IMG/VR virus record: IMGVR_UViG_2824233761_000002
Coordinates: 7,054 to 71,053 of that record
Source of the DNA: a virus
Lineage: Duplodnaviria; Caudoviricetes
Reading direction: 5' to 3' (one strand)
DNA length: 64,000 nucleotides
A program made the translations under genes and the position numbers. Shown in pieces: positions 10,822 to 32,790 of this stretch (its first letter is position 1; each line of letters opens with the position of its first letter). The notes under the pieces were generated by a model. It saw nothing but the letters and a program-made list of their open reading frames with translations. It did no database searches and was not told the origin of the DNA.

Positions 10822-11580
10822 GCGGTCAACATCCGCAAGTTCGTGGTCCGCGCCGGCCGGCTCGGCGAGCTGGTCGAGCTGGGCAGCCTGACCCCCACCG
10901 CGGCGACGTTCCTCGAGGCGTCGGTGCGCGCCGGCCTCAACATCATCACCACCGGAGGAACGCAGGCCGGCAAGACGACCATGCTCAACTGCCTGGCGGC
11001 CGCGATCCCCGGCGGCGACCGGGTGGTGTCGGCCGAGGAGGTGTTCGAGCTGCGCTTCCCCCACCCCGACTGGGTCGCCCTGCAGACCCGGCAGTCCGGC
11101 CTGGAGGGCACCGGGGAGATCCGGCTGCGCGACCTGGTCAAGGAGAGCCTGCGGATGCGGCCGAGCCGGATCATCGTCGGCGAGGTCCGGGCCGAGGAGT
11201 GCCTCGACCTGCTGCTCGCGCTCAACGCCGGGCTGCCGGGCATGTGCACGATCCACGCCAACAGCGCCCGCGAGGCGCTGGTCAAGATGTGCACCTTGCC
11301 GCTGCTGGCCGGCGAGAACATCTCGGCCCGGTTCGTGGTGCCCACCGTCGCCGCGTCCGTCGACCTGGTCGTGCACCTGGGCGTCGACGAGCGCGGCGTA
11401 CGCCGGGTCGACGAGATCGTCGGGGTGCCGGGCCGGGTGGAGCAGCACGTGATCGAGACCGAGACGGTCTTCGAGCGCCGCGGCGGCGAGCTGCGGCGTA
11501 CCGGCGGGCTGCCTCCCCATCTGGAGCGGTACGAGCGGGCCGGCATCGACCTGCACCGGATCCTGGCCGGCGCGTCCTGA
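10822..11580 (+). pseudogene. tadA: TadA/CpaF pilus assembly ATPase, 3' fragment
   Basis: AVNIRKF, Walker A GGTQAGKTT, EEVFEL, LRMRPSRIIVGEVR, CTIHANS; N-terminal domain absent and replaced by phage DNA (ORF 10768-11580 begins in the prophage). Confidence 0.85.
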
Positions 11581-12431
11581 TGGGCGCGCTCGTCGGCCTC
11601 GGGGTGGGCATCGGCCTGCTGCTGGTCTGGAGTGCATTCTTCCTGCCGCGGCGCGGCCCCACCGCGCCCCGCGCCCGGCGGACCACCGACCTGCTGGCGC
11701 GCGCCGGGCTCGGCCAGGTGTCGGCGACCGGGTTCGTGCTGCTCTGCGCCGCGTGCGGGGTGGGCACGACCCTGGTGATGCAGGTCGTCTCCGGCACGCC
11801 GCCGGTGGCGCTCGCCTTCGGCGCGATGGGCGGCTGCCTGCCGGTCGCCGTGGTGTCCGGCCGCGCCCGGCGGCGCCAGCGCGAGCTCGCCGAGGTCTGG
11901 CCGGAGGCCGTCGACAACCTGACGTCGGCCGTGCGCGCGGGCATGTCGCTGCCCGACGCCCTGGCCGGGCTGGCGGTGCGCGGCCCGGTGCCGCTGCGGG
12001 CCGCCTTCGACCAGTTCGCGCTCGACTACCAGGTGACCGGCCGGTTCGGGGAGTCGCTCGACCGGCTCAAGGAGCGGCTCGCCGATCCCGTCGGCGACCG
12101 TGTCGTCGAGGGCCTCCGGGTCGCGCGCGAGGTCGGCGGCGGCGAGCTCGGCCGACTGCTGCGCAACCTCTCGACGTACCTGCGCGAGGACCTGCGCACC
12201 CGCTCCGAGATGGAGTCGCGCCAGGCCTGGACGGTCAACGGCGCCCGGCTGGCCGTCGCGTCGCCGTGGCTGGTGCTGCTGCTGATGTCGCTCCAGCACG
12301 ACGTGATCCGGCGCTACGCGTCGCCGGTCGGCGTGGTGGTCCTCGTGGTGGGCGCCGGCATCTGCCTGGTGGCCTACCGGCTGATGATGCGGATCGGCCG
12401 ACTGCCCGTCGAGCGACGGATCCTGTCGTGA
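11580..12431 (+). CDS. tadB: Tad pilus assembly protein TadB (T2SS F family)
   Basis: N-terminal TM; WPEAVDNLTSAVRAGMSLPDAL; two C-terminal TMs; coupled to tadA. Confidence 0.9.
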   Translation: MGALVGLGVGIGLLLVWSAFFLPRRGPTAPRARRTTDLLARAGLGQVSATGFVLLCAACGVGTTLVMQVVSGTPPVALAFGAMGGCLPVAVVSGRARRRQRELAEVWPEAVDNLTSAVRAGMSLPDALAGLAVRGPVPLRAAFDQFALDYQVTGRFGESLDRLKERLADPVGDRVVEGLRVAREVGGGELGRLLRNLSTYLREDLRTRSEMESRQAWTVNGARLAVASPWLVLLLMSLQHDVIRRYASPVGVVVLVVGAGICLVAYRLMMRIGRLPVERRILS

Positions 12432-13363
12432 CACCGGCCTGGTGGGGAGCCCTGCTCGGCGCGACCGCCGCCGGCGGGCTGCTGCTCGTCGCGGTCCGGG
12501 TCCGCGCCATCCGGCGCCCGCAGCTCGCGCACCGGGTGCTGCCCTACCTCCGCGACCTGCCCTCGCTCGACGGCGCCGGCGACCGGCCCGGACCCACGCC
12601 CGTGCCGGCCGCGGTCGGCGTCTTCGGCCCGCCCCTGCGCTCGGCGGCCGACGCGGTCGAGCGGGTACTCGGCGGTGCCACCGCCGTCGAACGCCGGCTG
12701 GCCCGGGCCGGCATCGACCGGTCGGTGCACGAGTTCCGGGTCGAGCAGGTCGTGTGGGGGCTGGTCGCCTTCGCGGCGACGGCGGCCCTCGCGCTGCTGC
12801 GCACCCTCACCGACCCCGGCAGCCTGCTGCTGTGGGTGGTCGCGTGCGCGATCGCGTTCGTGGCGGGGGTGCTCGCCCGCGACAGCCACCTGACTGGCCA
12901 GGTGCGCAGCCGCGAGCGGCGAATGCTCGCCGAGTTCCCGGCCGTCGCCGAGCTGTTGGCCCTCGCGGTCGCCGCCGGCGAGAGCCCGGTGATGGCGCTC
13001 GACCGCGTCGTACGACGCAGCGGCGGCGAGCTGTCCCGCGAGCTGGGCCGGGTGCTGGCCGCCGTGCGCACCGGCGAGCCGGTCGCGGCGGCCTTCGACG
13101 GGCTCGCCGCGCGCAGCGGGCTGCCGGTCGTCTCGCGCTTCGCCCAGGGTGTCGCGGTCGCCGTCGAGCGCGGCACCCCACTCGCCGATGTGCTGCACGC
13201 CCAGGCCGCCGACGTCCGCGAGGCCGGCCGCCGCGAGCTGATCGAGTCGGCCGCCCGGCGCGAGGTACTGATGATGACGCCCGTCGTCTTCCTGGTGCTG
13301 CCGGTGACCGTGATCTTCGCGTTCTGGCCCGGGGTGGTCGGGCTGTCGCTGACCACCCCCTGA
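12428..13363 (+). CDS. tadC: Tad pilus assembly protein TadC (T2SS F family)
   Basis: EFPAVAELLALAVAAGES; ERGTPLADVLHAQA; C-terminal TM; GTGA overlap with tadB. Confidence 0.9.
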   Translation: MTPAWWGALLGATAAGGLLLVAVRVRAIRRPQLAHRVLPYLRDLPSLDGAGDRPGPTPVPAAVGVFGPPLRSAADAVERVLGGATAVERRLARAGIDRSVHEFRVEQVVWGLVAFAATAALALLRTLTDPGSLLLWVVACAIAFVAGVLARDSHLTGQVRSRERRMLAEFPAVAELLALAVAAGESPVMALDRVVRRSGGELSRELGRVLAAVRTGEPVAAAFDGLAARSGLPVVSRFAQGVAVAVERGTPLADVLHAQAADVREAGRRELIESAARREVLMMTPVVFLVLPVTVIFAFWPGVVGLSLTTP

Positions 13364-13384: not shown

Positions 13385-13492
13385 ATGAACGACCTGGTCC
13401 TGGCCCTGATGGCCCGGCTCTCCCCACGCGAGCGCGACGAGCGCGGCGACGTGCCGGGGTGGGTGATGATTTGTGTCGTGAACGGGCCCTGA
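13385..13492 (+). pseudogene. flp: Flp-type pilin gene, 5' fragment truncated by prophage 2
   Basis: RBS AGGAGG; MNDLVLALMARLSPRERDERG|DVPGWVMI (class III signal) then CVVNGP-stop in place of the hydrophobic helix. Confidence 0.75.
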
Positions 13493-13495
13493 TGC

Positions 13496-14995
13496 CTACC
13501 GCTCCCAGACGCCCTTCACCACAACGTCCGCGCGCGGCCGCCCCGTCCACACCCGCACCGGCCGGATCAAGTCACGCAGCACCTCCCGCCGGTGCTCCAC
13601 CGGCCGGTCATCCCACGACCCCAGCAGATCCTGCGCGATCCCCACCGGATCCGACGGCCCCCGCCGCGCCGACACCGCAGCGTCCTCATGCGCGGCCTGC
13701 AACTGATCCCGCTTCTCCACCAGGCCCGCCACCGTCTTGGCGTAGACCTCCGGCGGCAGCGGCGCCGACGCGTTCGACAGGGCCAGCTGCTGCAGCTCGG
13801 CATCGACGCGCGCGACAGCCCGGGCGAGTCGGTCCGCCTCCGACCTCGAGGCGGTGACGCGGGCCTCGGCAGCCAGGGCGACGTTGCGCCGCTCGTCGAC
13901 CTCGCCGGCGAGGTCGACGAGCCAGGCGTAGACCTTGTCCTCGACGTGCGACGCCATCACGTACCCGCCCTTGCACACGGCTGGGCCGATCTCCTTGCCG
14001 TTCTGGCACCGGTACTTGGGGACCCGATAGGCGCCGAACTGGCCGGCGACCATCGATCCTCCGCACCGACCGCAGCGGATCAACCCGGAGAGCAGGTACT
14101 GCGACCGGATCGTCCGGGCCGGCCTCGCAGCCCTGAGTCGCCGGGCGTCGAGGTATGCCTGCCACAGCTCTTGGTCGATGACGGGCTCGTGGACGCCAGG
14201 ATGCAGGGTCGGCTCGATCTTCCGGGCCCGGTCGCCGCCGGCGAGGAAGGACCCGGTCGCGAAGCCGGAGTCGAGGACGCGGCGCAGCGTACGGTCCGAC
14301 CACGGCCCGGGGTCCTTCTTCCCGTACCCACCGACGGTCAGGTGGCCATGAGCGTTGAGCCACCGCACCAGCTGGTAGACGGACTCGCCGGCGACGTAGC
14401 GGCGGTACATGTCCGCGAGGACGGGGGCGGTGACCGGATTAGGAACGTGGAGCTTCTTCTCGCGGTCGTAGACGTAGCCGAACCGATCTTTCCCGGTCGG
14501 CGGCCGGCCGGCGCGAACCCGTGAAGCGTGGACCTCCTTCCACACCTCCCCGATGCGCTCGGCCTCGAACGCCTGGAGCTCGGCGAGCATCCCGCGGGCG
14601 AGCCGGCCGCTCGAGGTGGTGGTGTCGAACTGCTCAGTGGCGGACTCGAGCCGGCCGCCGGCCTCTTCGACGCGGTCGATCGCGACGGCCCACCGGAGCC
14701 GGTGGCGTGCCGCGCGGGAGTACTTCCAGACGACGAGGACGTCGTACTCCCCCGCTTCGATGGCGGCGACGGCCTGGTCGAGGCGGGGCCACCAGGCGGA
14801 GCGGGCGCGGGATCCGGACTCGTCGATGCCTTCGAGCCAGCCGGCGATCTCGTAGCCGCGGGTGGCGGCATAGTCGATGATCGCGGTGCGCTGGACCTCC
14901 GGGGAGATCATCCCTTCACGTTCCTGGGAGACCCGCACGAGCCCGAGCGCCCTCGGTGGGGCTTCGGGGACGACGCGCAGCTGACGCCCGGTCAT
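13496..14995 (-). CDS. Large serine recombinase (integrase)
   Basis: LVRVSQ catalytic Ser; VWKYSRAAR; recombinase domain; LSGLIRCGRCG zinc ribbon; coiled coil. Confidence 0.95.
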   Translation of the reverse strand: MTGRQLRVVPEAPPRALGLVRVSQEREGMISPEVQRTAIIDYAATRGYEIAGWLEGIDESGSRARSAWWPRLDQAVAAIEAGEYDVLVVWKYSRAARHRLRWAVAIDRVEEAGGRLESATEQFDTTTSSGRLARGMLAELQAFEAERIGEVWKEVHASRVRAGRPPTGKDRFGYVYDREKKLHVPNPVTAPVLADMYRRYVAGESVYQLVRWLNAHGHLTVGGYGKKDPGPWSDRTLRRVLDSGFATGSFLAGGDRARKIEPTLHPGVHEPVIDQELWQAYLDARRLRAARPARTIRSQYLLSGLIRCGRCGGSMVAGQFGAYRVPKYRCQNGKEIGPAVCKGGYVMASHVEDKVYAWLVDLAGEVDERRNVALAAEARVTASRSEADRLARAVARVDAELQQLALSNASAPLPPEVYAKTVAGLVEKRDQLQAAHEDAAVSARRGPSDPVGIAQDLLGSWDDRPVEHRREVLRDLIRPVRVWTGRPRADVVVKGVWER

Positions 14996-15053
14996 TGCAG
15001 CGACGACGACCCGGCTACGGCGGATCGGTCCGCCACCCAACCCCGCGACCGAC

Positions 15054-15275
15054 TCATGCCGTCTCGTCCTCGTCGGCGGACTCGAACAGCCGATGGAGGT
15101 ACTCCTCGTGGTTGGCATACCGCATGCCGACGACCACGCCCTGCCCGATGATCCCGATGCCCCCGACGATGCTCGCGAGCACCAAGATGACGGTGCCGAT
15201 CGCTTGACCGTCCTCGGCTGCTGCGATGAGCCCACCGAGGATAGTCAGACCCACGCCAACGTAGATGTACGTCAT
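15054..15275 (-). CDS. Small two-TM membrane protein
   Basis: MTYIYVGVGLTILGGLIAA...VILVLASIVGGIGIIG; typical int-adjacent membrane gene. Confidence 0.6.
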   Translation of the reverse strand: MTYIYVGVGLTILGGLIAAAEDGQAIGTVILVLASIVGGIGIIGQGVVVGMRYANHEEYLHRLFESADEDETA

Positions 15276-15326
15276 CGGCGTCCCCGGCCTCGGCCGCAGG
15301 TCACCTGCTTCTCTCATTCCAGGCTC

Positions 15327-15791
15327 CTAGATGGTGATGGTCGCGAGCTGCTCGTCGAGGTACGCCCGCTCGCGGGGCGTGAGGGAGCTGAGCCGGACGG
15401 CGAGCGTGTCGTCGTCGACCCAGAGCTCCCAGGCTGCCTTCTCGTGGTCGGCCTGATGCCAGGCCAGCGCGTGCCCGATCCACCGGATGCTCGGCGCCAG
15501 GAGCCGGCCGACCTTGCGGTCGATGATCAGCTCCTCCCTCATCCGCCGATCCGGAGCGCACGGGCCCCGAACGATGTGCTGGGTCTCGTGGGCGATGGTG
15601 CACCGGCGCTCGGCCTCGTCGAGGCCGTTTGCGAGATACACCCGCCGCTCGTCGAAGCTGGTCAGCCCCCACTGCCCGTCCGGAAGGTCGTCGGTCCAGA
15701 CCAGCCGCCAGTCGCGGTAGGTCCCGAAGACGCGCCACGGATGGTGCCGGTGGCGGCGGGGATCGCGGAAGACGTGGATGGGGTCGACCAT
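15327..15791 (-). CDS. ImmA/IrrE-family zinc metallopeptidase (putative antirepressor)
   Basis: RRCTIAHETQH (HExxH) and E...DRKVGRLL; located between integrase and repressor. Confidence 0.85.
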   Translation of the reverse strand: MVDPIHVFRDPRRHRHHPWRVFGTYRDWRLVWTDDLPDGQWGLTSFDERRVYLANGLDEAERRCTIAHETQHIVRGPCAPDRRMREELIIDRKVGRLLAPSIRWIGHALAWHQADHEKAAWELWVDDDTLAVRLSSLTPRERAYLDEQLATITI

Positions 15792-15799
15792 GACCCGGG

Positions 15800-15821
15800 A
15801 CCGTAGAGCCGACCGCCGACA
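15800..15821 (-). promoter_or_regulatory. PafBC-type (RecA-NDp) DNA-damage promoter of the ImmA-like gene
   Basis: Minus strand TGTCGG-cggtcggctc-TACGGT, 8 nt before the ATG at 15791; exact TGTCGG-N10-TANNNT. Confidence 0.75.
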
Positions 15822-15837
15822 CTCGCTGTCCGGATGT

Positions 15838-16308
15838 CTAGCGGGGCTCCATGTCGTCGGGGTCGTCCGGTTCGGGCTCCCCCGCGCGTTCGGCGTTTCG
15901 CTGGCGCTGCTGGTTTTTCGAGACCTTCCCGGTCGTACGCGCGGCTGACCGTAGTCCGGTCAGTGCAGGCGCGCTGGTGGCGGCGGTGTCTCCACCGTGC
16001 TCACCCCTCTCCTCTGCTCGTCGGAGGATCTCCTTGATGAGCTCCACCTCGTCGAGTGAGCTGAGGGACGGCACCGCCGTCGGCCGCACCCGGGCCTCTT
16101 CCTCGGTCAGGAAGTCCGCCGCCACGAATGCCTCAAGGATCGGGCGGCCGTAGGCACGAGCGAACGCTGCCACCTGCTTGGCGTCCGGCGACTTGATGCC
16201 GCCGTTCTTCCATCGCGCGATCGACGGCTCAGTGACGCCGACCTTCTGCGCGATGACGCGGTTGACCTCGCCGCTGCTCCAGCGTGCGACGTACTCGCTC
16301 CAGCTCAC
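15838..16308 (-). CDS. Prophage immunity repressor (XRE HTH)
   Basis: NRVIAQKVGVTEPSIARWKNG; divergent from cro; TACGGT 6 nt upstream of the GTG (leaderless). Confidence 0.85.
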   Translation of the reverse strand: MSWSEYVARWSSGEVNRVIAQKVGVTEPSIARWKNGGIKSPDAKQVAAFARAYGRPILEAFVAADFLTEEEARVRPTAVPSLSSLDEVELIKEILRRAEERGEHGGDTAATSAPALTGLRSAARTTGKVSKNQQRQRNAERAGEPEPDDPDDMEPR

Positions 16309-16562
16309 GGCATGACCGTATTGCGGGTTCGGGGCGCATCCACGTCCCCAATCATGCCTTGCGTTGACGCAAGTGCGCAGGTGGCGGCATTACACGCGTG
16401 TCTTTCTGCACGTCAGGAGCCATTCGGGCTTGCGCAAGTGCCGCGTTGCCAAACCGTGACCTTCGTGTATTGCGTTCGCGCCAGTCTCGTGCGTATTGTT
16501 CACGCATTGCCGCAAGACAGCAGGTCAGCGGCCCAGACACGCAGAAGGAAGGAGGCGAGGTG
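16309..16562. promoter_or_regulatory. Divergent repressor/cro control region with operator-like repeats
   Basis: Palindrome TTGCGT-TG-ACGCAA at 16359-16372 plus several TTGCG/CGCAA half-sites; more AT-rich than flanks. Confidence 0.65.
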
Positions 16563-16799
16563 ATGACCGCCGTTCTCCGTCTCAAGCTCGACCAGCTCGG
16601 CAAGATCCGAGGCTGGACCGGGCTCAAGACGGACGCCGCGCTCGCCGCGGCCATGGGCATCGACGCGGGGAACCTCTCCCGCGTCCTCAAGGGCAAGCAG
16701 CAGCCCGGCCCCAAGTTCATCGCTGCCCTGTGCACGGCGCTCAAGGCCGACCTCGAGGACCTCTTCGAGATCGTCGACGACGCCGAGGACGTGGCGTGA
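16563..16799 (+). CDS. Cro-like HTH protein
   Basis: DAALAAAMGIDAGNLSRVLKGKQQPGPKFIAALC; RBS AGGAGG. Confidence 0.85.
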   Translation: MTAVLRLKLDQLGKIRGWTGLKTDAALAAAMGIDAGNLSRVLKGKQQPGPKFIAALCTALKADLEDLFEIVDDAEDVA

Positions 16800-16993
16800 T
16801 GCCGTCGCGTGAGGAGGCGATCGCGTCGGCCGGGGCGAAGCTCGCGGCCTCCGACATCGCCTGCGCGCAGATGACGCCGCGCGAGCAGGCCGAGGCCGCC
16901 TGGACCCCGACGTCGCCGTACTCGGTGGACGAGATCGAGGACCGCATTCGTGCCCGCCGCGGGATGGCGCCGGTCCACCGGAAGGCGTCCTGA
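16799..16993 (+). CDS. Hypothetical phage protein
   Basis: TGATG coupling to cro; 64 aa. Confidence 0.6.
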   Translation: MPSREEAIASAGAKLAASDIACAQMTPREQAEAAWTPTSPYSVDEIEDRIRARRGMAPVHRKAS

Positions 16994-17069
16994 CCCACCC
17001 CTAGAAAGCCGCAGGGCCCCGTCGCTGCCGAGCGAAGACCGGGACCCCACGAACGAGAGGAATCCTCGC

Positions 17070-17531
17070 ATGAGCGAGACCAGCACCACCATCACCCAGG
17101 CCGCGGCGTTGCGCGCCGCCGCCGACTTCATCGACACCCACCCCGGGCTCCCCCTGCCCTTCGCCACGTCGTACTCCACCGGTCGCGTGAAGCTCAACTA
17201 CTTCCTGCACATCAACGACTTCGGCGGCCTCGCCGAGCAGAAGGCCACGGCCGCCGCGATCGTGCGAGCAGTCGGCGGGGACTGGGACAAGCAGCCCTGG
17301 GGCGACGAGTTCCGCTTCACCGCCAGCCTCGACGCCCTCACCTTCGAGGTGCAGGTGAAGCGCGAGGCCGTCTGCGAGCGGGTCGTCACCGGGACCGAGA
17401 CGGTCACCGTCCCGGCCGTCGAGGCCCAGGAGGCGCAGCCGGAGCGGACCGAGGTCGTGGAGGTCGTGGAGTGGCACTGCCAGCCGCTGCTCGCCGACGA
17501 GCCGGTCGACGCTGAGGCGGTGTCGTCGTGA
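17070..17531 (+). CDS. Hypothetical phage protein
   Basis: RBS GAGAGG; GC3-rich codons. Confidence 0.65.
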   Translation: MSETSTTITQAAALRAAADFIDTHPGLPLPFATSYSTGRVKLNYFLHINDFGGLAEQKATAAAIVRAVGGDWDKQPWGDEFRFTASLDALTFEVQVKREAVCERVVTGTETVTVPAVEAQEAQPERTEVVEVVEWHCQPLLADEPVDAEAVSS

Positions 17532-17872
17532 GCGCGCGTCGTACGCCGGTGCCCACGATCGCGTTCCTCGCGGTCGCCCAGCACGCCGCCGACCACGCAC
17601 TGCCCTTCCACGGCATCGACACCCCCATCACCCCGGGCGGCCCGTTCGTGGTCAAGGTCGCCGCCGACGACATGGAGGCCTGGCTCGACACCCTCACCGA
17701 CCTCTCCCCCGGCGTGACCAAGCCGGTCGGCGACGGCCCGGCTGCGGTGCTGCGTCACCGCGGTGTCGTCCCTGGCGCGATCGGCGGCGTGCCGGTCGAG
17801 GTCCTCTGCATCCTCCGCCGTCCCGCTCCCCAGGCGGCTGGGCTGCGGCTGCTGGTCGGGAGCGCGTCGTGA
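17528..17872 (+). CDS. Hypothetical phage protein
   Basis: GTGA overlaps on both sides. Confidence 0.6.
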   Translation: MSARRTPVPTIAFLAVAQHAADHALPFHGIDTPITPGGPFVVKVAADDMEAWLDTLTDLSPGVTKPVGDGPAAVLRHRGVVPGAIGGVPVEVLCILRRPAPQAAGLRLLVGSAS

Positions 17873-18243
17873 CCGCCCCGGAGATCGGGGGGACGTACGT
17901 CGACCCGTGCACCGGCCGCTCGTACCGCGTCGTCGACGTCACGGCCCTCCACGCGGTCGTGGTCCGTGTCGACGTCCACGAGCCCGGCGTCTCCTACGTC
18001 GCCGCGCGCGAGCGGTTCGGCGACCACTTCGTGCCGGCCGACGACCTGACCGAGCTGGCCGAGGCAGTGGGTGTGCTCGTGGACGCGCTGCGTCGGCCGG
18101 GTGACCCGCTGGCGGTGGAGTTCTCGACGGGCCCGTCGTCGTACGGGCCGTTCTGGTCGGACGCCCGGCTGGGGCAGTTGGTCGAGGTGTGGGCGCGTGA
18201 GGTTGCGGCTGCGGATGGTGCTGACGGCGGTGACCCCTCATGA
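17869..18243 (+). CDS. Hypothetical phage protein
   Basis: Translational coupling within the early operon. Confidence 0.6.
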   Translation: MTAPEIGGTYVDPCTGRSYRVVDVTALHAVVVRVDVHEPGVSYVAARERFGDHFVPADDLTELAEAVGVLVDALRRPGDPLAVEFSTGPSSYGPFWSDARLGQLVEVWAREVAAADGADGGDPS

Positions 18244-18614
18244 CCACCACCGAGACCTGTGCCCACGGCTGCAACCACGTGGAGCCCTACGGCTGGGCGG
18301 TCACCGTCGGTTGTCCCGCCCACGATCCTGACGCCCGGGTCCGCGCGCTGGTCGCGCAGATCGACCCCGCCGACGTTCTCCCCGTCCTGATGCGGCTCGC
18401 CGCCGACCCGGCGATTGACGAGTACCACTCGTGTGTCGTGTGCGGATCGCACGCGGTGATCGAGCGTGGGGTCTCGATCGTCTCGTCAGTGAAGCCCGAG
18501 GGCCAGCTAGTCGGAGTCGCCTGGTGCGCGAGCGAGCGGTGCCAGACGGACCGGCGCTCCACACGTGCTCTCGTCGAGAAGGTCGGACGCGTCACGGCTG
18601 GTGGTGACGCGTGA
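18240..18614 (+). CDS. Hypothetical Cys/His-rich phage protein
   Basis: ATGA overlap; CxxxC/CxxC motifs. Confidence 0.55.
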   Translation: MTTTETCAHGCNHVEPYGWAVTVGCPAHDPDARVRALVAQIDPADVLPVLMRLAADPAIDEYHSCVVCGSHAVIERGVSIVSSVKPEGQLVGVAWCASERCQTDRRSTRALVEKVGRVTAGGDA

Positions 18615-18874
18615 TGACCGCCACCGAGACCCTCCGCCTCCCCGGCCACCCCACCACCACCCGACCGGCCCCGGCCGAGCCCACCAAGGTCCTCGAGCCG
18701 CCGCCGGCGTACGACCCGTGCGACCACCTCGACACCACCCGCCCCCACGACCTCGACACCTGCCCCTCCTGCCAGGGCCAGTGCCTCGTCGAGGTCCGCG
18801 ACTGGATGACCGGCCTCGACGTGTGGATCACCTGCCCGGCCTGCGCCGGCACCGGAGAGCGAGGCACAGCATGA
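18614..18874 (+). CDS. Zinc-finger phage protein
   Basis: CPSCQGQC...CPACAGTG (DnaJ-type Zn-finger repeats). Confidence 0.6.
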   Translation: MTATETLRLPGHPTTTRPAPAEPTKVLEPPPAYDPCDHLDTTRPHDLDTCPSCQGQCLVEVRDWMTGLDVWITCPACAGTGERGTA

Positions 18875-19905
18875 GCGACCCGTACGAGGCCGAGCAGACC
18901 GGCCCGCTGCACGTACAGAGCGACGACGCACCCGCCATCCCCGACCGGCGGCCGATGGACCACAAGCTGCAGAAGAAACAGCAGACCCGCGGCCCCATCC
19001 CCGCCCGCCAGACCAACGGCTACTACGCCGACCACGCCACCGGCGACCGGCTCCGCTCCGTCACCACAATCCTCGGCGGCGGCGTCCCCAAGCCGGCGCT
19101 CGTGCACTGGGCCGGGAACACCTGCACCGACGCCGCGATCGAGGCCGTGCCGCTGCTGGTCGCCGCGCTGCGGCGGCCCGAGCAGCTCGCCGAGCTGCGG
19201 TCGTGGATCACCCGCGCGCACACCAGGAAGAAGGACGAGCGCGCCGAGGTCGGCAAGGCCGTCCACGCCATCATCGAGTCCCGCCTCCTCGGCACCCCGC
19301 CGCCCGCGAGCGTGCGCGTCGGCGACCAGGAGTGGGCGCTCAACGGGCCCGAGCTCGCGCCGTTCATCGAGCACTTCCACCAGTTCGAGACCGACTGGCA
19401 GCCGGTCTGGAAGGCCTCGGAGATGGTCGTCGCGAACCCCGTCCACGGGTACGCCGGGACGCTCGACTACATCATCGACGGCGCCGGCCTGATCGGCGAC
19501 ATGCTCCGCGGCCGGGGCTACGCCGTGGACCCGGGCGTCGACGTCATGGGCGACACCAAGACCGGCGGCGAGTGGAACCGGGTCACGTCCGCCGGTCACG
19601 TTCACGGCGTCTACCCGGAGGCGGGCCTGCAGATGTCGGCCTACCGGAACGCCGAGGTGTGCTGGCTCCGCTCCGGTGAGCGGGTCCCGATGCCGGCGAC
19701 CGCGGAGGTCGGCGTGATCCTGCACCTGCGCCCGGAGGGCTACCGGGTCTACCCGGCGCGGTGCGGGGACCTGGAGTACTCCTACTTCCGTCACGCACAG
19801 ATGGTCGATGAGTGGTCCTCGCGGATCGCGTCGGCGAAGGCCGACGAGTCGGTGATCGGGAAGGCGCTCGTCGCGCCGGCCGAGGCCCGCGGGGCGGTGG
19901 CCTGA
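18871..19905 (+). CDS. Cas4/RecB-like PD-(D/E)xK exonuclease
   Basis: SVTTIL, GKAVHAIIE, GYAGTLD, GDTKTG, EAGLQMSAY motifs. Confidence 0.85.
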   Translation: MSDPYEAEQTGPLHVQSDDAPAIPDRRPMDHKLQKKQQTRGPIPARQTNGYYADHATGDRLRSVTTILGGGVPKPALVHWAGNTCTDAAIEAVPLLVAALRRPEQLAELRSWITRAHTRKKDERAEVGKAVHAIIESRLLGTPPPASVRVGDQEWALNGPELAPFIEHFHQFETDWQPVWKASEMVVANPVHGYAGTLDYIIDGAGLIGDMLRGRGYAVDPGVDVMGDTKTGGEWNRVTSAGHVHGVYPEAGLQMSAYRNAEVCWLRSGERVPMPATAEVGVILHLRPEGYRVYPARCGDLEYSYFRHAQMVDEWSSRIASAKADESVIGKALVAPAEARGAVA

Positions 19906-20207
19906 TGTACGACCACACCGACCTGGGCGTCGACCTGATCCGCGCCGAGCGCGAGCGCCAGATCGTCGACGAGGGCTACACACCGGACCACGACCGCGCG
20001 CACTCGCACAGCGACTTACTCGACGCCGCCCTCGCCTACATCAAGGTCCAGCCGCACCTGTGGCCCTGGCACCTCTCCACGTTCAAGCCGGCGCACGACG
20101 AGCCGCACGACGACTGCGACGACCGGTGCATCCGCGACCTCGTCAAGGCCGGCGCGCTCATCGCGGCCGCCATCGACCGACTCCTCGACGACCAGAAGGA
20201 CTCCTGA
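19905..20207 (+). CDS. Conserved phage hypothetical protein
   Basis: IRAERERQI..EGYTPDHD, WPW and RDLVKAGALIAAAIDRL, a recurrent phage motif. Confidence 0.7.
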   Translation: MYDHTDLGVDLIRAERERQIVDEGYTPDHDRAHSHSDLLDAALAYIKVQPHLWPWHLSTFKPAHDEPHDDCDDRCIRDLVKAGALIAAAIDRLLDDQKDS

Positions 20208-20209
20208 TC

Positions 20210-21322
20210 ATGCCCATCCTCGACCTCCAGAAGCGCTCCCGCACCCTCGGCCGAATCCGCCTCGGCCAGAAGGGCGACCGCGGCCAGCCCCAGAAGCTCG
20301 ACCGCTTCCGCCTCACCTCCGCCAGCGAGCCACTCCTCAACAAGGTCGCCGAGCTCTACGGCGGCGAGGTCCACCCCTGGACCCCTGCCGGCGGCTCCCC
20401 CGCCTTCGAGGTCATCACCGACTCCCGCCGCCTCCCGATCATGGTCCCGCCCCAGCCCGTCACCCAGTGGTTCGAGGCCTGGCGCAAGTCCGGGTGCGTC
20501 CACCGCTGCGACGGCCGCACGAACGTCTTGACCGACGAGCCGTGCGACCCCGAGGACGCGCTCCACCAGGAGGCCACCGAGAAGCCCACCACCCGCCTCA
20601 ACGTCGTCCTCCGCGACGTCGAGGGCGTCGGGGTCTGGCGCGTCGAAACAAAGGGCTGGAACGCCGCCGCCGAGCTGCCCGACGTCGCTGAGTTCCTCGC
20701 CCAGGCCGGCGGCTACGTCGACGGCTGGCTGGCGCTGGAGCAGCGCACCAGCGTGGACAACTCCGGCTCCAAGGCGGTCACGCGGCACTTCATGGTGCCG
20801 ATCATCGAGATCGACGTGACCCCCGCGCAGCTGATGGCCGGCCGCGGTCGGGTGGCGGCGCCGGTGCTGACGGGTGGTCCGGTCGGGGACCGGCCGGCGC
20901 TCGCTGCCGCGGGTCCGGACTACGTCGCGCTCGCCGCCGACGCCACGACGGTCGAGGAGGTCCGGGGGCTGTGGACTCGCGCGAACGATGCGGGGCACCT
21001 CACCCAGGGCCTGGACGAGCACCTCAAGCGCCGTGCGCACGAGATCACGGCCTCCGGCGCTCCTCAGGCCGGCGCGGCCGCGCGCGTCGAGGAGCCGCAG
21101 CCGGACGCCGAGGGTGTCGCGGACGCGGTGGTCGTCGACGAGGATGCGGACGCGGTGTGGCAGCAGATCGTGCTCGAGGCCGGCCGGCAGGGCATGACCG
21201 CCAGCCAGCTGCAGGACGACTTCCCTGCCCGGATGGGCGGGCTGATCCCGGACGACGCGTCGGCGGGCGAGCTGCGGCACTACCTGGGGCTGCTGCAGGG
21301 CGGGACGGGGGCCGCAGCATGA
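20210..21322 (+). CDS. phiC31 gp3-like recombination directionality factor domain protein
   Basis: LDRFRLTSASEPLLNKVAELYGG, HRCDG and TRLNVVLRDVEGVGVWRVETKGW parallel phiC31 gp3 motifs; C-terminal extension. Confidence 0.7.
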   Translation: MPILDLQKRSRTLGRIRLGQKGDRGQPQKLDRFRLTSASEPLLNKVAELYGGEVHPWTPAGGSPAFEVITDSRRLPIMVPPQPVTQWFEAWRKSGCVHRCDGRTNVLTDEPCDPEDALHQEATEKPTTRLNVVLRDVEGVGVWRVETKGWNAAAELPDVAEFLAQAGGYVDGWLALEQRTSVDNSGSKAVTRHFMVPIIEIDVTPAQLMAGRGRVAAPVLTGGPVGDRPALAAAGPDYVALAADATTVEEVRGLWTRANDAGHLTQGLDEHLKRRAHEITASGAPQAGAAARVEEPQPDAEGVADAVVVDEDADAVWQQIVLEAGRQGMTASQLQDDFPARMGGLIPDDASAGELRHYLGLLQGGTGAAA

Positions 21323-21633
21323 CGCGGCCGTCGTACGTCGCAACCCCGCTCGAGCGGGTGCTCTGGGACTCCCGCAACCGGGACCGGCAGGCGATCCTCG
21401 CCATGCAACGACGCCAAGACGTCTGGTGGCGAGGCTGGGGCATCCTGCGGCGCAAGCCCTGGCGGGCGAGCCATGGCCCCCAGATCCGTGGCCGATCACC
21501 CCGCGTCGCGCTGTCCAACCTCCGACGCTGGCTCCGAGCCGCCCACGACTGCCAAGACCCCGCCGTCGCGTGCACCTGCGCAGGCAGCTTCCGCTTCCCC
21601 ACTCCGGACCTGCGGCGGGGGGTGCAGTCCTGA
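21319..21633 (+). CDS. Hypothetical phage protein
   Basis: Coupled on both sides. Confidence 0.5.
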   Translation: MTRPSYVATPLERVLWDSRNRDRQAILAMQRRQDVWWRGWGILRRKPWRASHGPQIRGRSPRVALSNLRRWLRAAHDCQDPAVACTCAGSFRFPTPDLRRGVQS

Positions 21634-22556
21634 TGGCCGCCACGAAGTGGTGGGAGCAGCCGTTCGCCGCGCTCGACACCGAGACCACCAGCCCCGACCC
21701 CACCCAAGCCCGCATCGTCACCGCCGCCGTCGTCCACCGCATCCCCGGCCAGAGGCCCAAGCCGATCCGCTGGCTCATCGACCCCGGCGTCGACATCCCG
21801 GACGAGGCTGCCGCCGTCCACGGCTACACCAACGACCGCATCCACGCCACCCTCGCCCAGCACGGCGCGAAGCCCGGATGGGCACTCCAGGCCGCCCCCA
21901 CCGGCGCCGTCCGAGCCATGCCCGCTGAGGCCGCCATCTTCAACCTGTGCATGCAGACCGCCGGGTGCATCCTGCGCGAGCAGGCGCTGGTCGTGCACAA
22001 CGCCGCGTACGACCTCACCCTCCTCGAGCACGAGGCGGCCCGGTACGACGTCGACCCGCTGTCGGTGCGGCCGGCCGGGCTGCGGGGCGTGGTGGACCCG
22101 ATGGTGATCGAGAAGGCCTTCGACCAGTACCGCAAGACCTGCTACCGCAAGAGCCCGGACGGTGCGGAGTGTGACCGGGAGACCCCGGTGCACGTGTGCG
22201 GCGGCTGCCGTGGCGGCAAGTGGAAGTGTGGCGGCTGCGGGACCACCGACCGCACCCTGACCAGCCTCTGCGCGCACTACGGCGTCGTGTTCCCCGCCGA
22301 CGCCGCGCACGACGCCGCCGCCGACGCGATCGCCTGCGTCCGGCTGCTGTTCAAGCTGCTCGGCGCGTGGCCGGAGATGGCGCGGTGGCGGCTCCCCACG
22401 CTGCACGCGCATCAGGAGACGTGGCGCCGGCAGCAGCAGAAGGGGCTGCGGGAGTTCTTCGACAAGGTCGGGAAGGACCACGACGGCTGCTGCGGGGCGT
22501 GGCCGGTGCACACCGACGCGTGCGCGGGCGCGCACCGAGAGGTGGTGGCGGCATGA
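21633..22556 (+). CDS. DnaQ-like 3'-5' exonuclease (DEDDh)
   Basis: ALDTETT, VHNAAYDL, VVDPMVIEK, AHDAAADA. Confidence 0.9.
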   Translation: MAATKWWEQPFAALDTETTSPDPTQARIVTAAVVHRIPGQRPKPIRWLIDPGVDIPDEAAAVHGYTNDRIHATLAQHGAKPGWALQAAPTGAVRAMPAEAAIFNLCMQTAGCILREQALVVHNAAYDLTLLEHEAARYDVDPLSVRPAGLRGVVDPMVIEKAFDQYRKTCYRKSPDGAECDRETPVHVCGGCRGGKWKCGGCGTTDRTLTSLCAHYGVVFPADAAHDAAADAIACVRLLFKLLGAWPEMARWRLPTLHAHQETWRRQQQKGLREFFDKVGKDHDGCCGAWPVHTDACAGAHREVVAA

Positions 22557-22777
22557 GCGCCCTCGCCGTCCCCCTGCACTGCCAGGAGACCGCCGCCGCG
22601 GTGGCCACCCGTGACCGGGCCGCGACCGCCGACCAGCTCATCGACGTCGCCTGCAAGGACGCCATCCGCCTCCTCCGCGGCGGCCGCGCCGGGATGGCGG
22701 AGTACCGGCTCGCCCGGGCCGGCACCGCCGCCGACCGGATCCTCGGCACCACGACCACGAAGGACGGCGCCCGATGA
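22553..22777 (+). CDS. Hypothetical phage protein
   Basis: ATGA coupling. Confidence 0.5.
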   Translation: MSALAVPLHCQETAAAVATRDRAATADQLIDVACKDAIRLLRGGRAGMAEYRLARAGTAADRILGTTTTKDGAR

Positions 22778-23448
22778 GGTACACCACCCGCCCCCTCTCG
22801 GACCGCACCTGGTTCAACACGTCCCGGCGCTCCAGGTCCCAGTTCACCTCCACTTGGGCCGACACCCTCACTCTCCTCGAGCGCGAGATCGAGCACCTCA
22901 AGGGCCGCGAGCTCGTCATCGAGGTCGACGTCCGTGAGCAGGACATCCGTCTCGACGGGATGCTCCGCGCATCCGCGGTCGCCTCGGACCCCGCCGTCGT
23001 GCTCGCCATGGAGTCCAAGCACGGGCCGCTGCTCTACCGGTGCGACCGGTACAACGCGCTTCCCTACCGACGGTCCACCGAGCGCGGCGAGGTCGCCCCG
23101 AAGGTCTGGATGCACAACGTCCGCGCGATCGCGCTCACCCTCGAAGCGCTCCGCGCTGTCGACCGGTACGGCGCGACCGAGACCGGCCAGCAGTACGCCG
23201 GGTTCAAGGCACTCCCGGCCGGCCGCGCGATACCCGCCTCCCACATGACCTCCGACGAGGCGTGGTCGATCATCGGCTCCTACCAGCTGGAGCCGGTTGC
23301 GAAGTTCCGCGCGGAGGCGTGCACGGACGAGGTCCGCGCGGCCTACCGCCGAGCGCGCGCCGCCGCCCACCCCGACCGCCACCGCGGCGACCGCACGCTG
23401 TGGGACCAGGTCGAGCAGGCCGCCGCCGTCCTGGGGGTGGCCCGGTGA
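22774..23448 (+). CDS. J-domain (DnaJ-like) phage protein
   Basis: C-terminal AYRRARAAAHPDRHRGD (HPD motif). Confidence 0.75.
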   Translation: MRYTTRPLSDRTWFNTSRRSRSQFTSTWADTLTLLEREIEHLKGRELVIEVDVREQDIRLDGMLRASAVASDPAVVLAMESKHGPLLYRCDRYNALPYRRSTERGEVAPKVWMHNVRAIALTLEALRAVDRYGATETGQQYAGFKALPAGRAIPASHMTSDEAWSIIGSYQLEPVAKFRAEACTDEVRAAYRRARAAAHPDRHRGDRTLWDQVEQAAAVLGVAR

Positions 23449-23702
23449 AGAACCCCGAGAACTGCGGCTACTCCGAGGGCGTCATCCACTCCCACACCGA
23501 GCACTGCCACCAGGCCGGCATCCAGCTCGGCCGCGAGCAGGAGCGCGGGCGCATCCTCGCCTGGCTCCACGACCAGGCCGCCCTCCACCACCACGCCCAC
23601 GGCGACGCCGCGCGCCGCGGCGCCCTCAACCACGCCGCCGACCGGCTCCGCGACGGCCGTGCGCCGGGCCGGGCCGAAGGAACGGAGACGACCGATGGCT
23701 GA
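23445..23702 (+). CDS. Hypothetical His-rich protein
   Basis: GTGA coupling. Confidence 0.5.
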   Translation: MKNPENCGYSEGVIHSHTEHCHQAGIQLGREQERGRILAWLHDQAALHHHAHGDAARRGALNHAADRLRDGRAPGRAEGTETTDG

Positions 23703-24129
23703 CCTCAACTCGGCCGAGACTGCCCACGTCGGCAAGACGGGTGGAGGGGGCGGCAAGTGGGTCGCCTACGACAGCCCGAAGCCGCCCGCGGTCGCGGACC
23801 ACTACGCGTTCTGGGGTGACGCCCCGCCGACCCGCTCCGAGCGGTGTGCGTGGTGGGTTCGGCAGATCGAGCGCGGGTGGCGACCCAACCGGCGGATCGC
23901 CGGAGAGTGCTACGACTGCTCCGCCGAGTGGTACGGCGTCTACATCTGGGAGTACCTGAACGTCATCGCCCCTGCGCTGTCCAGTCCGACCGCACCCGAG
24001 TTGAGCGCCGACCACGCTCGCTGTCGGCGCTGCGGCGCGGTGGTTCACCTGCTGCTGATCGCGCACCACGACCGTGACTGCCCTGTCGCCACACCGACCG
24101 GTGCGTCGACGGGCGGCAACCCGACATGA
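23695..24129 (+). CDS. Hypothetical phage protein
   Basis: RBS GGAG; overlaps both neighbours. Confidence 0.55.
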   Translation: MADLNSAETAHVGKTGGGGGKWVAYDSPKPPAVADHYAFWGDAPPTRSERCAWWVRQIERGWRPNRRIAGECYDCSAEWYGVYIWEYLNVIAPALSSPTAPELSADHARCRRCGAVVHLLLIAHHDRDCPVATPTGASTGGNPT

Positions 24130-24227
24130 ACCCCTACCTCGGCCTCGCCATCATCCTCACCGCCATCGCCATCTCCTGGTGGGCCGCCGGCGGCTTCCGC
24201 AACCCACCAGGAGGAGACCCACGATGA
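24126..24227 (+). CDS. 33-aa single-TM peptide
   Basis: MNPYLGLAIILTAIAISWWAAGGF; ATGA coupling at both ends. Confidence 0.5.
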   Translation: MNPYLGLAIILTAIAISWWAAGGFRNPPGGDPR

Positions 24228-24739
24228 ACATCCTCGCCATCGACCCCGGCAACACCGAGTCCGCCTACGCCCTCATCCACGCCACCACCCACCGACCCAT
24301 CCACGCCGCGAAGCTCCCCAACGAGCAGCTCCGCATCGGACTCCAACGCAACGCACTCGGCCAGGCCGCCGAGCACGTCGCGATCGAGATGATCGCCTCC
24401 TACGGCATGTCCGTCGGCGCCGACGTCTTCGAGACCTGCGTCTGGATCGGCCGGTTCGCCGAGTCCAGCCGACTCCGCACCGGCCACGAGCCCGACCTCG
24501 TGAAGCGCCACCCGATCAAGCTCCACCACTGCCACTCCTCGAAGGCCAAGGACTCCAACATCATCCAGGCCCTCGTCGACCGGTTCGCGCCTGGCGAGCC
24601 CAACCGCGGGAAGGGCACCAAGGCCAACCCGGGCTGGTTCCACGGCTTCGCCGCCGACATGTGGCAGGCCTACGCCCTCGCCGTCTACGTCGCCGACCAG
24701 CTCGAGGCGAGCCCAGCCGGCCATGCAGCGGGGTTCTGA
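24224..24739 (+). CDS. RuvC-like Holliday junction resolvase
   Basis: ILAIDPG, VAIEM, SKAKDSNI, ADMWQAYALA. Confidence 0.8.
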   Translation: MNILAIDPGNTESAYALIHATTHRPIHAAKLPNEQLRIGLQRNALGQAAEHVAIEMIASYGMSVGADVFETCVWIGRFAESSRLRTGHEPDLVKRHPIKLHHCHSSKAKDSNIIQALVDRFAPGEPNRGKGTKANPGWFHGFAADMWQAYALAVYVADQLEASPAGHAAGF

Positions 24740-26373
24740 TGGTCACCAACCTCGGCAACGCCACCGCCTACGTCGCCGGTACCGGCCACCGACCCCTCCC
24801 CAAGGCCGACGAGCACGGCTACCGCCGCGCCCACCAGCCACGCGCGAAGAAGCCCAGCGGCCTCGACTGGGACGCCCTCACCCCCCACTGCAAGACATGC
24901 GGGCAGAAGTCCGGCCAGCTCGACAACAACGACACCTGCCCCACCTGCCGCGGCGACGCCCCGAAGACCACGCCGAAGACCGCCCGCCGACACGGCCCCT
25001 ACCAGCAGCTCCCCGACGACGAGATCGAACGCCGCTTCACCGCACCCGCCTCCGCACCCGACAACACCCGCCTCGGCGCCGACCTCGCCGACCTCGAAGC
25101 CACCGACCCGAAGGTCACCGCAGCCGCCGCAGCACTCGATGACGCCACCGACCGCATCACCCGCCCCGACGACCACGTCCACGCCGATGCTCTCCGCGTC
25201 GACGACACCCCAGAACTGCCCACGGAGGGTAAGCAGGGCCAGCCCACGACGCGGATTAGCGCACCGCGCGTAGCGACCAGCGCGGATCCAGCCGAGGCGG
25301 CTGGCGCTGGTTCCTCCACCGCCGAGATGAAGGACCCGGCGGTCGCCCAGGAGACGCGCCCTGCGGCGACCGCCGGCCCGACCAACACCAGCCCGGCCTA
25401 CACCCCCGAGGGCAACCTCGACGCCCAGATCCAGCACGCCGCACGCGTCCTACGCGACACCGCCACCCACCACCACCCCGCCATCAAGCTGCTCCGCCTC
25501 AACGCAATCGCCGCGATCGAGGCCCTCCACCTGTTCGTCGAGATGAACCACCCACAGACCCCCGCGCCGGCGCCCGCCCTCCCCCGTGACGGCGCCGGCG
25601 CGGGCCCCGACCGGCCGGCCGCCGACCCGGAAGGGGAAGCCGGACGGCGGCCGGCCGCCCGCCGCGCCCCACGCTCGCGCCGATCGAGCGCTGTCACCGT
25701 CGACGAGCAAGCCATCATCCGCGAGTACAAGGCCGGCGACACCGCGCCCACGATCGCCCGCCGCCACGGCATCGGCCCGAAGCGGGTCCGCGACATCCTC
25801 GACCGCCACGGCATCGCACGCCGCGACGACCGAGCCACCCACTCAGGCGGCCGCAACAAGCTCCACCTCACCGACCAGCACCGCGAAACCATCGTGCGCC
25901 GCTACGTCGTCGACCAGGCCGCCATCGGCAAGATCTCCCGCGACACCGGTCACGGACGCCACACCATCACGGCCATCCTCAAGGACGCCGGCGTCACCAT
26001 CCGCCCAGCCGCGCACCTCGCCCGAGCAACCGTCCTCACCGACACCCAGCGCGCCGAGATCGTCACCGCGTACATCGACGGCGGCGAGTCCAGCCACGTC
26101 CTCGGCACCCGGTACCGGATCCGCGCCGAGACCGTGCGCCAGATCGTCGTCGACGCCGGCTACCAGGTCCGGCCCAGAGGCGGCGAACCGGGCACCGACC
26201 GCCTGACGGCGCTCGGCGTGACCGCGGCCCAGGTCAAGGCATGGGCACTCGCCCAGGGGCTCATCGACCAGATCCGCACTGGTCGCGTCCCGGGCCGGCT
26301 CATCGACGCCTACGAGCAAGCACACCCCACCACCACCGCAACACCCGACCAGTCAGGAGACACCGCAGCATGA
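24739..26373 (+). CDS. Multi-HTH protein with C-terminal Lsr2-like DNA-binding domain
   Basis: N-terminal CxxC..CxxC; three HTH repeats; VTAAQVKAWALAQGLIDQIRTGRVPGRLIDAYEQAH resembles the Lsr2 C-terminal domain. Confidence 0.7.
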   Translation: MVTNLGNATAYVAGTGHRPLPKADEHGYRRAHQPRAKKPSGLDWDALTPHCKTCGQKSGQLDNNDTCPTCRGDAPKTTPKTARRHGPYQQLPDDEIERRFTAPASAPDNTRLGADLADLEATDPKVTAAAAALDDATDRITRPDDHVHADALRVDDTPELPTEGKQGQPTTRISAPRVATSADPAEAAGAGSSTAEMKDPAVAQETRPAATAGPTNTSPAYTPEGNLDAQIQHAARVLRDTATHHHPAIKLLRLNAIAAIEALHLFVEMNHPQTPAPAPALPRDGAGAGPDRPAADPEGEAGRRPAARRAPRSRRSSAVTVDEQAIIREYKAGDTAPTIARRHGIGPKRVRDILDRHGIARRDDRATHSGGRNKLHLTDQHRETIVRRYVVDQAAIGKISRDTGHGRHTITAILKDAGVTIRPAAHLARATVLTDTQRAEIVTAYIDGGESSHVLGTRYRIRAETVRQIVVDAGYQVRPRGGEPGTDRLTALGVTAAQVKAWALAQGLIDQIRTGRVPGRLIDAYEQAHPTTTATPDQSGDTAA

Positions 26374-27005
26374 CCGACACCCACGGCAGCATCGGCACCA
26401 AGGGCCTCGACGGCACCGGCTTCACCGAAGACCTCATCGGCGACCACTTCCACGGCGTCGGCACCCACATCATGGCCATCGTCGACCTCCAGGTCGTCGA
26501 CAAGGCAGGCCCCAACCTCAAGGGCAAGCGGAAGGTCACCTACGTCATCGACGGCATCGAACCAGCCACCGACGACAACCTCGCCGAGCACCTCCGCGAG
26601 CTCCAGCGCACCGTCTACCTCAACCGGCAGAAGACCGGCGCCCAGGCCACCATCGACCAGGAGCTCGACGGCACCGGCGCCGAGCCGACCGTCGCCGGCG
26701 TGGTCGCCGCCGGCGCCGCCCACCGGCCGCACCCGTTCCTGCCCGTCGACGCCTCCCAGGACAACCCGATCTGCGACGTCTGCGGGCTCCTCGAAGCCGC
26801 ACCCCGACACAGCGTCCAGGACCAGCTCCCCGACGGCGAAGGCGAGGAGCACGACCCGGACGGCGAGGAGCACGAGGACGACCTGGAGGGAGACGAGCCG
26901 CACGACGACGCGGAGCCCTGGGAGTACGAGGCCCCGGAGGGCCAGCTCCCCGCCACCGCGATCCCCGACCCCTTCACCACCCCCGAGCCCGACCCGGCCG
27001 CCTGA
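26370..27005 (+). CDS. Hypothetical protein with acidic C-terminus
   Basis: RBS AGGAG; ATGA coupling; HPF...CDVCG...H motif. Confidence 0.65.
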   Translation: MTDTHGSIGTKGLDGTGFTEDLIGDHFHGVGTHIMAIVDLQVVDKAGPNLKGKRKVTYVIDGIEPATDDNLAEHLRELQRTVYLNRQKTGAQATIDQELDGTGAEPTVAGVVAAGAAHRPHPFLPVDASQDNPICDVCGLLEAAPRHSVQDQLPDGEGEEHDPDGEEHEDDLEGDEPHDDAEPWEYEAPEGQLPATAIPDPFTTPEPDPAA

Positions 27006-28811: not shown

Positions 28812-28834
28812 CCACCTCGACGCCACCCTCTCAG

Positions 28835-28980: not shown

Positions 28981-29027
28981 CGGGACTCACTGCTCCGTGA
29001 GGGCGCGATCGGCCGCAAGGACGGTGC

Positions 29028-32120: not shown

Positions 32121-32127
32121 ACCCTGC

Positions 32128-32783: not shown

Positions 32784-32790
32784 CCACCCG

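Follow-up and report, generated by a model that had tools for sequence, protein, structure and literature searches.

A prophage splits a pilin-like gene in a tad operon of a Nocardioides soil bacterium

Introduction

Prophages are known to interrupt comYC, which encodes the major competence pilin in Streptococcus and Lactococcus (Croucher et al. 2016, PMC4774983). They are the closest parallel to the insertion analyzed here, that of a prophage (prophage 2) in a Nocardioides soil bacterium. In both cases the prophage carries a site-specific integrase and lies within the coding sequence of a small pilin of the type IV class; orthologues of the integrase use an orthologous, imperfectly conserved site across species and genera, and related integrases also target comM. 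The two cases differ in the phylum of the host and in the target, which is a Com-type pilin in the former and a Tad-type pilin-like protein in the latter.

The large serine integrases of actinophages (phiC31 type) comprise three domains and act on short, dyad-symmetric att sites with a non-palindromic central dinucleotide; attB of mycobacteriophage Bxb1 reportedly lies in groEL1. Prophage 2 has the same three-domain enzyme, short dyad att sites and an attB in a host gene that integration does not regenerate, whereas the identity of its integrase to those of isolated phages is at most 45% (phage Maja), the target gene is a different one, and both orientations occur among relatives, following a flipped core. 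Active lysogeny is known from the Listeria phages phi10403S/A118 in comK, from SPbeta in spsM and from skin in sigK, where precise excision restores the gene as part of a programme. There too, the host gene is interrupted by an element of prophage or phage origin that carries a serine recombinase; however, these elements excise precisely, whereas prophage 2 shows a 4-bp change in attL and its operon contains a second break.

In Micrococcus luteus, two tad clusters are both needed for the formation of Tad-type competence pili (PMC4322843). Likened by layout, this actinobacterium resembles the Nocardioides host in possessing a canonical Flp cluster next to a second tadA-tadB-tadC-(small ORF)-tadE/F cluster whose minor pilins show a deviant processing site. 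A prophage with a serine integrase in a Tad or Flp pilin gene was not reported in the literature searched.

The two halves of the gene and a prophage-free sister strain

The window, i.e. the whole stretch of 64,000 nucleotides analyzed, corresponds to C1:923573-987572 of the 5.8-Mb, 22-contig assembly of the host (genome G000). Downstream of tadC, which ends at 13363, a ribosome-binding site precedes a 35-codon ORF (13385-13492) whose start resembles a 60-aa protein encoded directly after tadC in Nocardioides relatives. The stretch from tadC into this ORF was matched by 30 relatives of the genus, in which the ORF runs on to approximately 60-70 aa; the similarity ends at 13468-13470, in accordance with the cut at around 13470 given in a preliminary description of this DNA. 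The following features make up the left junction and the inserted element:

13385..13476, plus strand: 5' portion of the 60-codon pilin-like gene, covering codons 1-30 and the first two bases of codon 31; host DNA that makes up the attL B arm together with the crossover GT, assigned by the family alignment and approximately 99% identical to L063:6001-6092 of the sister strain except for 13471-13474
13477..13492, plus strand: phage-encoded end of the fused ORF, comprising the remainder of codon 31, four additional codons and TGA; also the inner part of the attL phage arm
13496..14995, minus strand: large serine integrase (499 aa plus stop) with Pfam Resolvase, Recombinase and Zn_ribbon_recom
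13477..64000, continuing to window-equivalent 65330 (C1:988902): prophage 2, 51,856 bp core to core

The last five residues of the fused 35-aa product are phage-coded, with the TGA at 13490-13492. The integrase stop codon on the minus strand occupies 13496-13498, leaving 3 nt between the two stops, where 4 nt had been stated before; the earlier figure was correct to within one base. The 3' part of the gene was located at C1:988900-988992 (window-equivalent 65328-65420) on the same contig, 1.3 kb beyond the window end, as the preliminary description had predicted, and its deduced protein sequence was identical to that of the closest relatives. Prophage 2 is therefore inserted at codon 31, with both junctions present in the assembly, the gene halves 51,856 bp apart and an intact gene regenerated at neither of them.

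A protein search with the pilin-like protein of the closest relative identified a 60-aa protein (P0008) that differs from the one of this strain in two leader residues. It is encoded on NCBI GCA_018732145.1, CP076104.1 (L063), a sequence 98.8-99.5% identical to three host segments of the present assembly. This sister strain is free of the prophage and has uninterrupted genes for TadA (423 aa), TadB, TadC, the pilin-like protein, TadE (PF07811), a 149-aa protein and Tad (PF13400); it thereby supplies the true attB. Chance as the source of the split gene is excluded because a strain that is approximately 99% identical has the uninterrupted gene and because related integrases adjoin halves of the same gene in other genera. 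Protein identities to L063 amounted to 100% for the TadA halves, 99.3% for TadB (283 aa), 96.8% for TadC and 99-100% for the three downstream genes. With flanking genes 97-100% identical in protein to a prophage-free strain, the insertion into the pilin-like gene is recent, as is the one in tadA described below, and nothing else in the operon has decayed. As a side observation, tadC (12428-13363) is set apart from its neighbors, which are at 99-100%, by its lower identity and a single in-frame 4-aa gap.

The cut had previously been placed before the hydrophobic helix; it lies instead in the first turn of the helix, after W-V-M-I-(T). Since the gene is split into a 35-aa stub that lacks the helix and a 3' piece with neither promoter nor start codon, the pilin-like protein is predicted not to be made in the lysogen, in line with the inactivation proposed earlier.

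A divergent Tad-type pilin-like protein

The intact protein has 60 aa; a charged leader whose last residues are R-D-E-R-G precedes approximately 20 hydrophobic residues, a layout also seen in the DUF4244 pilins of the same genomes. Members of the family share an invariant E-R-G-D-V-P-G-W-V, after which come the hydrophobic stretch and an amphipathic tail. Together with the gene order in the sister strain, tadA-tadB-tadC-gene-TadE(PF07811)-x-Tad(PF13400), this corresponds to the arrangement of a pilin, i.e. 50-80 aa, a short charged leader, approximately 20 hydrophobic residues and a place in a tad locus beside tadC and tadE.

The preliminary description had termed the interrupted gene an Flp pilin gene. 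Insertion into a pilin-like gene was borne out, but its Flp identity was not. The intact relative P0001 gave no hit to Pfam, even at E values up to 10 (Flp and DUF4244 being PF04964 and PF14029), or to NCBIfam, and the processing motif G/XXXXEY is absent from the start of the hydrophobic stretch, where E-R-G-I-T-T-A-E-Y is found in the DUF4244 pilins of these genomes. Comparison with the DUF4244 profile by hhalign yielded a probability of 28% (P 6e-4, 33 columns), a weak alignment in which the R-D-E-R-G leader ends and the helix starts are in register. UniRef names some members "DUF4244 domain-containing"; on DUF4244 itself, nothing relevant was found in the literature searched. A canonical DUF4244 (Flp-type) pilin (PF14029) is encoded at C2:267053-267196 of the host genome beside another TadA, in a separate and apparently intact Tad locus, and each of 30 sampled relatives (30/30) likewise has one.

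The missing Pfam and NCBIfam hits, the lack of the G/XXXXEY motif and the low DUF4244 probability would be compatible with a different kind of small membrane protein whose gene lies in the tad operon by coincidence. We consider this improbable, given that the position between tadC and the TadE-family gene is fixed in relatives, that the layout is DUF4244-like with leaders in register in the weak alignment, that some members carry a DUF4244 label in UniRef, and that a prepilin peptidase is present. We thus regard the small protein as pilin-like, of the Tad type but divergent, and belonging to a second locus; its putative identity as a pilin is based on position and architecture, and membership in Flp/DUF4244 is not established.

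Of 401 sampled genomes of the class, 250 contained a match to a profile of the small protein, representing 119 of the 163 genera; two unpublished genomes, G721 and G920, are counted in this tally, and no other result depends on them. Within this class sample, a true split was seen in this genome only (1 of 250 gene-bearing genomes); among 300 other genomes sampled from the family, two had an insertion. Class-sample genomes with two matches to the profile were considered as further prophage splits, but the paired matches were explained by contig-end duplicates, a frameshift or a partial paralogue. The target gene is accordingly widespread and nearly invariant in these comparisons, and insertions into it are rare. 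Separately, in two Nocardioides genomes (G345 and G620; loci L041 and L042) the pilin-like gene is without the normal C-terminus after the hydrophobic start, owing to what looks like a frameshift or read-through; pseudogenes or errors in sequencing may be the reason.

A second element in tadA

The genes upstream of the pilin-like gene are arranged as follows:

C1:915944-916474: tadA 5' part (residues 1-177), 17.9 kb upstream
10822..11580, plus strand: tadA 3' part (residues 172-423 of the 423-aa TadA of the sister strain; ORF 10768/10822-11580)
11580..12431, plus strand: tadB (T2SSF), intact, identity to the sister strain 99.3% (283 aa)
12428..13363, plus strand: tadC (T2SSF), intact, 96.8% identical, one in-frame 4-aa gap

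The TadA-type ATPase fragment in the window covers only positions 106-273 of the T2SSE profile. A 17.9-kb element (C1:916474-934394, window -7098 to 10822) splits tadA after residue ~175 and contains genes for a tyrosine integrase (L015:16524-17747, minus strand), a repressor-like HTH protein, a major tail protein, a tape measure and an excisionase-like HTH protein (window 10370-10696). Its two junctions carry a 16-bp direct repeat, one copy of which lies at 10825-10840 of the window. This element is unrelated to prophage 2, and the operon is broken twice. Since tadA is also split, the loss of prophage 2 could not by itself bring back the pilus. An in-frame ATG in the phage DNA (10768) could give rise to an N-terminally truncated ATPase. 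Elsewhere, the genome encodes ComEC and a single A24 prepilin peptidase (C3:403779-404105); its T2SSE-type ATPase loci number five.

Prophage 2 and its integrase

Pfam searches with the integrase gave hits to PF00239 Resolvase (1.9e-21, residues 17-164), PF07508 Recombinase (4.7e-12) and PF13408 Zn_ribbon_recom (2.6e-10), and the catalytic serine S23 in its R-x-S context is invariant in five homologues. With an N-terminal resolvase domain containing the serine, followed by recombinase and zinc-ribbon domains, and with att sites of dyad symmetry, the protein is assigned to the large serine integrases. This agrees with the preliminary description, which had proposed such an enzyme, crossover at a 2-bp core and no regeneration of the target gene. 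An identity search revealed no record of the same integrase. Further genes of prophage 2 are:

15327-15791: ImmA-like protein
15838-16308: repressor-like HTH protein
27219-28811: DnaB-like helicase
36269-37939: large terminase
37997-39652: portal
41680-44618: head protease and major head protein
48926-52852: tape measure (1308 aa)

Modules for packaging, head, tail, replication, integration and immunity are all present, and prophage 2 looks like a complete siphovirus-type prophage of 51.9 kb. No lysis genes were identified in it, and two candidates gave no PHROG hit.

att sites and a 4-bp anomaly in attL

The att sites were compared by aligning attB of the sister strain (L063:6061-6122), attL (window 13445-13506) and attR (L013:3874-3935); attP is a reconstruction obtained by joining the phage-side halves. 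The sites and their cores are:

13445..13506: attL, consisting of host arm, GT and phage arm
13475..13476: inferred crossover dinucleotide GT in attL, the center of dyad symmetry of the rebuilt attP, in the same register in the G141 prophage
C1:988903-988904 (L013:3904-3905; window-equivalent 65331-65332): GT partner in attR
13471..13474: 4-bp block directly left of the crossover, differing from attB of the prophage-free sister strain and changing codons 29-30 from Ile-Thr to Ile-Cys

Read outward from the central GT, the arms of the rebuilt attP are identical at all nine nearest bases and at 17 of the first 22. The sequence common to attP and attB comprises 7 bp (TCACGGT), and the crossover GT forms the first two bases of codon 31 (Val). 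A crossover at TT was rejected, as it left attB frameshifted; placing it at TC or AT would have needed a mismatched core and cost attP its dyad symmetry.

attR has exactly the composition phage arm, GT and host arm, with two differences further out in the host arm that are ordinary strain differences. attL, on the other hand, is off by four bases: positions 13471-13474 read TTGT versus CACG in L063, after 26 preceding bases without a mismatch. The reconstruction proposed in the preliminary description was therefore obtained with attR and a dyad-symmetric attP around GT as expected, but with a deviating attL. At face value, attL would point to an allele coding for Ile-Cys-Val; this was dropped, as the sister strain and all relatives have Ile-Thr-Val, and the four bases were treated as a change in attL. 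Residue 30 was Thr (once Val) and never Cys in all 38 Nocardioides loci (38/38) and the top protein hits, and Thr30 is invariant in the 16-sequence family alignment.

Beside the core, the two phage arms and the left host arm of the sister strain have the five bases CGTGA, compared with GATGA in the right host arm and ACAAA in the host arm of this attL, which has lost four of the five core-adjacent bases common to the other arms. The four-base change probably weakens the host half-site of attL, and because the motif next to the core is gone, excision may be impaired. The block could stem from a complex mutation after integration (e.g. error-prone repair of an aborted cut) or from a rare ancestral allele. 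No second copy or ectopic template of it was found elsewhere in the genome. Exact-match scans of genome, viral and metagenome collections with the rebuilt attB, the rebuilt attP and the phage arm alone gave no match, and the assembly contained no excised-state attB or attP junction.

That the change is a scar which prevents excision, left for instance when an aborted excision cut underwent error-prone repair, and that the prophage is on its way to domestication or decay, is a possible but tentative reading. It would fit a single block that abuts the cleavage dinucleotide within the 7 bp common to attB and attP, in flanks otherwise approximately 99% identical to the sister strain and with no genomic template; moreover, the host arms are unaltered in two other lysogens, G141 and L064. 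However, the sampled prophage genes look intact, and an unusual ancestral allele offers an alternative; a sequencing error is unlikely.

In silico joining of attL and attR at GT produced a 60-aa ORF with the exchange Thr30Cys, a consequence of the four attL bases that differ from attB. The restoration on excision foreseen in the preliminary description thus applies insofar as both halves rejoin in frame; the product would differ from the wild type, and tadA would stay split. A reversible switch, in which conditional excision restores the gene and turns the pilus on, might be suggested by the clean junctions with undecayed flanking genes, by an integrase that looks intact and by the precedents in comK, spsM and sigK. 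We regard it as very improbable: Thr30Cys affects a position invariant in the alignment and excision would not restore the wild-type gene, the attL host arm lacks most of the core-adjacent motif, tadA is independently broken, a recombination directionality factor was not identified, and the assembly has neither the attB nor the attP junction.

Related integrases and their target genes

Relatives of the integrase occurred in four of 300 other genomes sampled from the family. Those of G056 (65% identity) and G141 (63%) adjoin halves of the same pilin-like gene, with the other halves at distances of 49.6 and 45.3 kb, respectively. In G141, the GT register is as in prophage 2 and the orientation is opposite, the integrase adjoining the 3' half. 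Additional cases came from scans with the integrase alignment A1. Half of the pilin-like gene directly follows the integrase stop in Nocardioides sp. SYSU DS0663 (67%), in a Marmoricola MAG and in Pseudoclavibacter helvolus (39%), and a 5' or 3' half does so in about ten IMG/VR prophages (39-47%). A half also follows the stop in a Mycobacterium MAG (47%), whose phage arm beside GT is identical to that of prophage 2 over 15 bp. Altogether, at least six other genera have integrases with 39-67% identity next to halves of this gene, in both orientations; those with 63-67% identity (G056, G141, L064) adjoin them at the same codon. The best relative from an isolated phage was the integrase of Arthrobacter phage Maja (45%, locus L114).

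The central dinucleotide alone sets the orientation of insertions by serine integrases. Read along the integrase gene, the core is AC in prophage 2, where the integrase adjoins the 5' half, and GT in G141, L069 and L106, where it adjoins the 3' half, which fits an orientation that follows the core dinucleotide. The prophage of G056 (L027/L025; G056:C1:219797-219856 and ~170068-170208) does not fit this rule: its attL and attR share 8 bp, and the homologous center would be AT, a palindrome. The subgroups L115, L116, L125 and L130 have their junction two or three codons farther along, and their crossover has thus drifted within the same conserved stretch. On a free viral contig (L126), a perfect 8+8-bp palindrome around AA lies just past the integrase stop (~2880-2920), with the inner-arm motif found in attP of prophage 2; it is likely the intact attP of a relative.

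Integrases with 46-49% identity from Geodermatophilus chilensis (L067:2968-3612) and an IMG/VR contig (L132:2962-3603) adjoin the C-terminal part of a ComM-like Mg-chelatase gene, and the clade therefore has at least two host-gene targets. Those with 42-45% identity in G191 and G304 (L020:2942-3631, L021:2977-3630) adjoin a conserved gene fragment without a Pfam hit, 20-45 kb from the pilin-like gene of these genomes; an initial assignment of this neighbor as a ParA/TadZ-like ATPase was dropped, as it had no Pfam hit.

The insertion might benefit the phage. Loss of the pilin could remove a receptor (superinfection exclusion) or a DNA-uptake pilus, blocking transformation that can cure prophages, and the target would then be selected for function as well as for conservation. 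The operon is broken by two unrelated elements, and the integrase family enters this gene in many genera. Sister branches (46-49%) adjoin the ComM-like gene, and comM and comYC are recurrent targets of mobile genetic elements (PMC4774983). The competence pilus of Micrococcus luteus is built by two tad clusters together (PMC4322843), and ComEC is present in the host. We nevertheless consider such a benefit rather unlikely: a conserved coding sequence is sufficient for the choice of attB by serine integrases, insertions are rare both in the class sample and among the other family genomes, and a further insertion in the operon carries no cost after tadA or the pilin-like gene has been disrupted. 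Extended to the whole group, the argument would be that of a widespread actinophage integrase clade specialized on the Tad-type pilin gene and comM because their knockout helps the prophage, by a block of DNA uptake or by receptor loss; by analogy with the systems above, this is conceivable but unlikely.

Discussion

Our preferred explanation, to which we assign a probability of roughly 85%, is that prophage 2 was integrated by its large serine integrase into a conserved pilin-like gene between tadC and tadE, with the attL change arising afterwards or being ancestral. A dyad-symmetric attP would have recombined with an attB in the stretch coding for W-V-M-I-T-V-M-T-A-G, the cut falling on the GT at the beginning of codon 31. 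The target was probably chosen chiefly for its near-invariant sequence across the class, which would make it a dependable landing site, and the conserved coding sequence alone suffices to explain this choice. The four host-arm bases of attL beside the cut would have been replaced after integration, or would represent an unusual ancestral allele; the change probably weakens the half-site, and excision would leave Thr30Cys behind as a scar.

The event is real but fairly ordinary, and its target seems to be undescribed. It provides a new and very conserved attB for large serine integrases in Actinomycetes, with the target present in approximately 60% of the sampled genomes, and the natural integrase/attP variants in both orientations could be used as orthogonal tools for integration in Nocardioides and its relatives. 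The finding also draws attention to a small unannotated family of pilin-like genes, mostly "hypothetical" in the databases. The 4-bp scar beside the cleavage site presents a small puzzle on how prophages become fixed.

If the integrase clade did profit from the knockout of its targets, it would be an actinobacterial counterpart of the comYC/comM-targeting phages of Firmicutes, and the two elements in one operon would be a sign of conflict. The lysogen and the approximately 99% identical prophage-free strain form a test system for whether actinobacterial Tad-type pili act as phage receptors or as DNA-uptake organelles, and for whether phages gain from destroying them.
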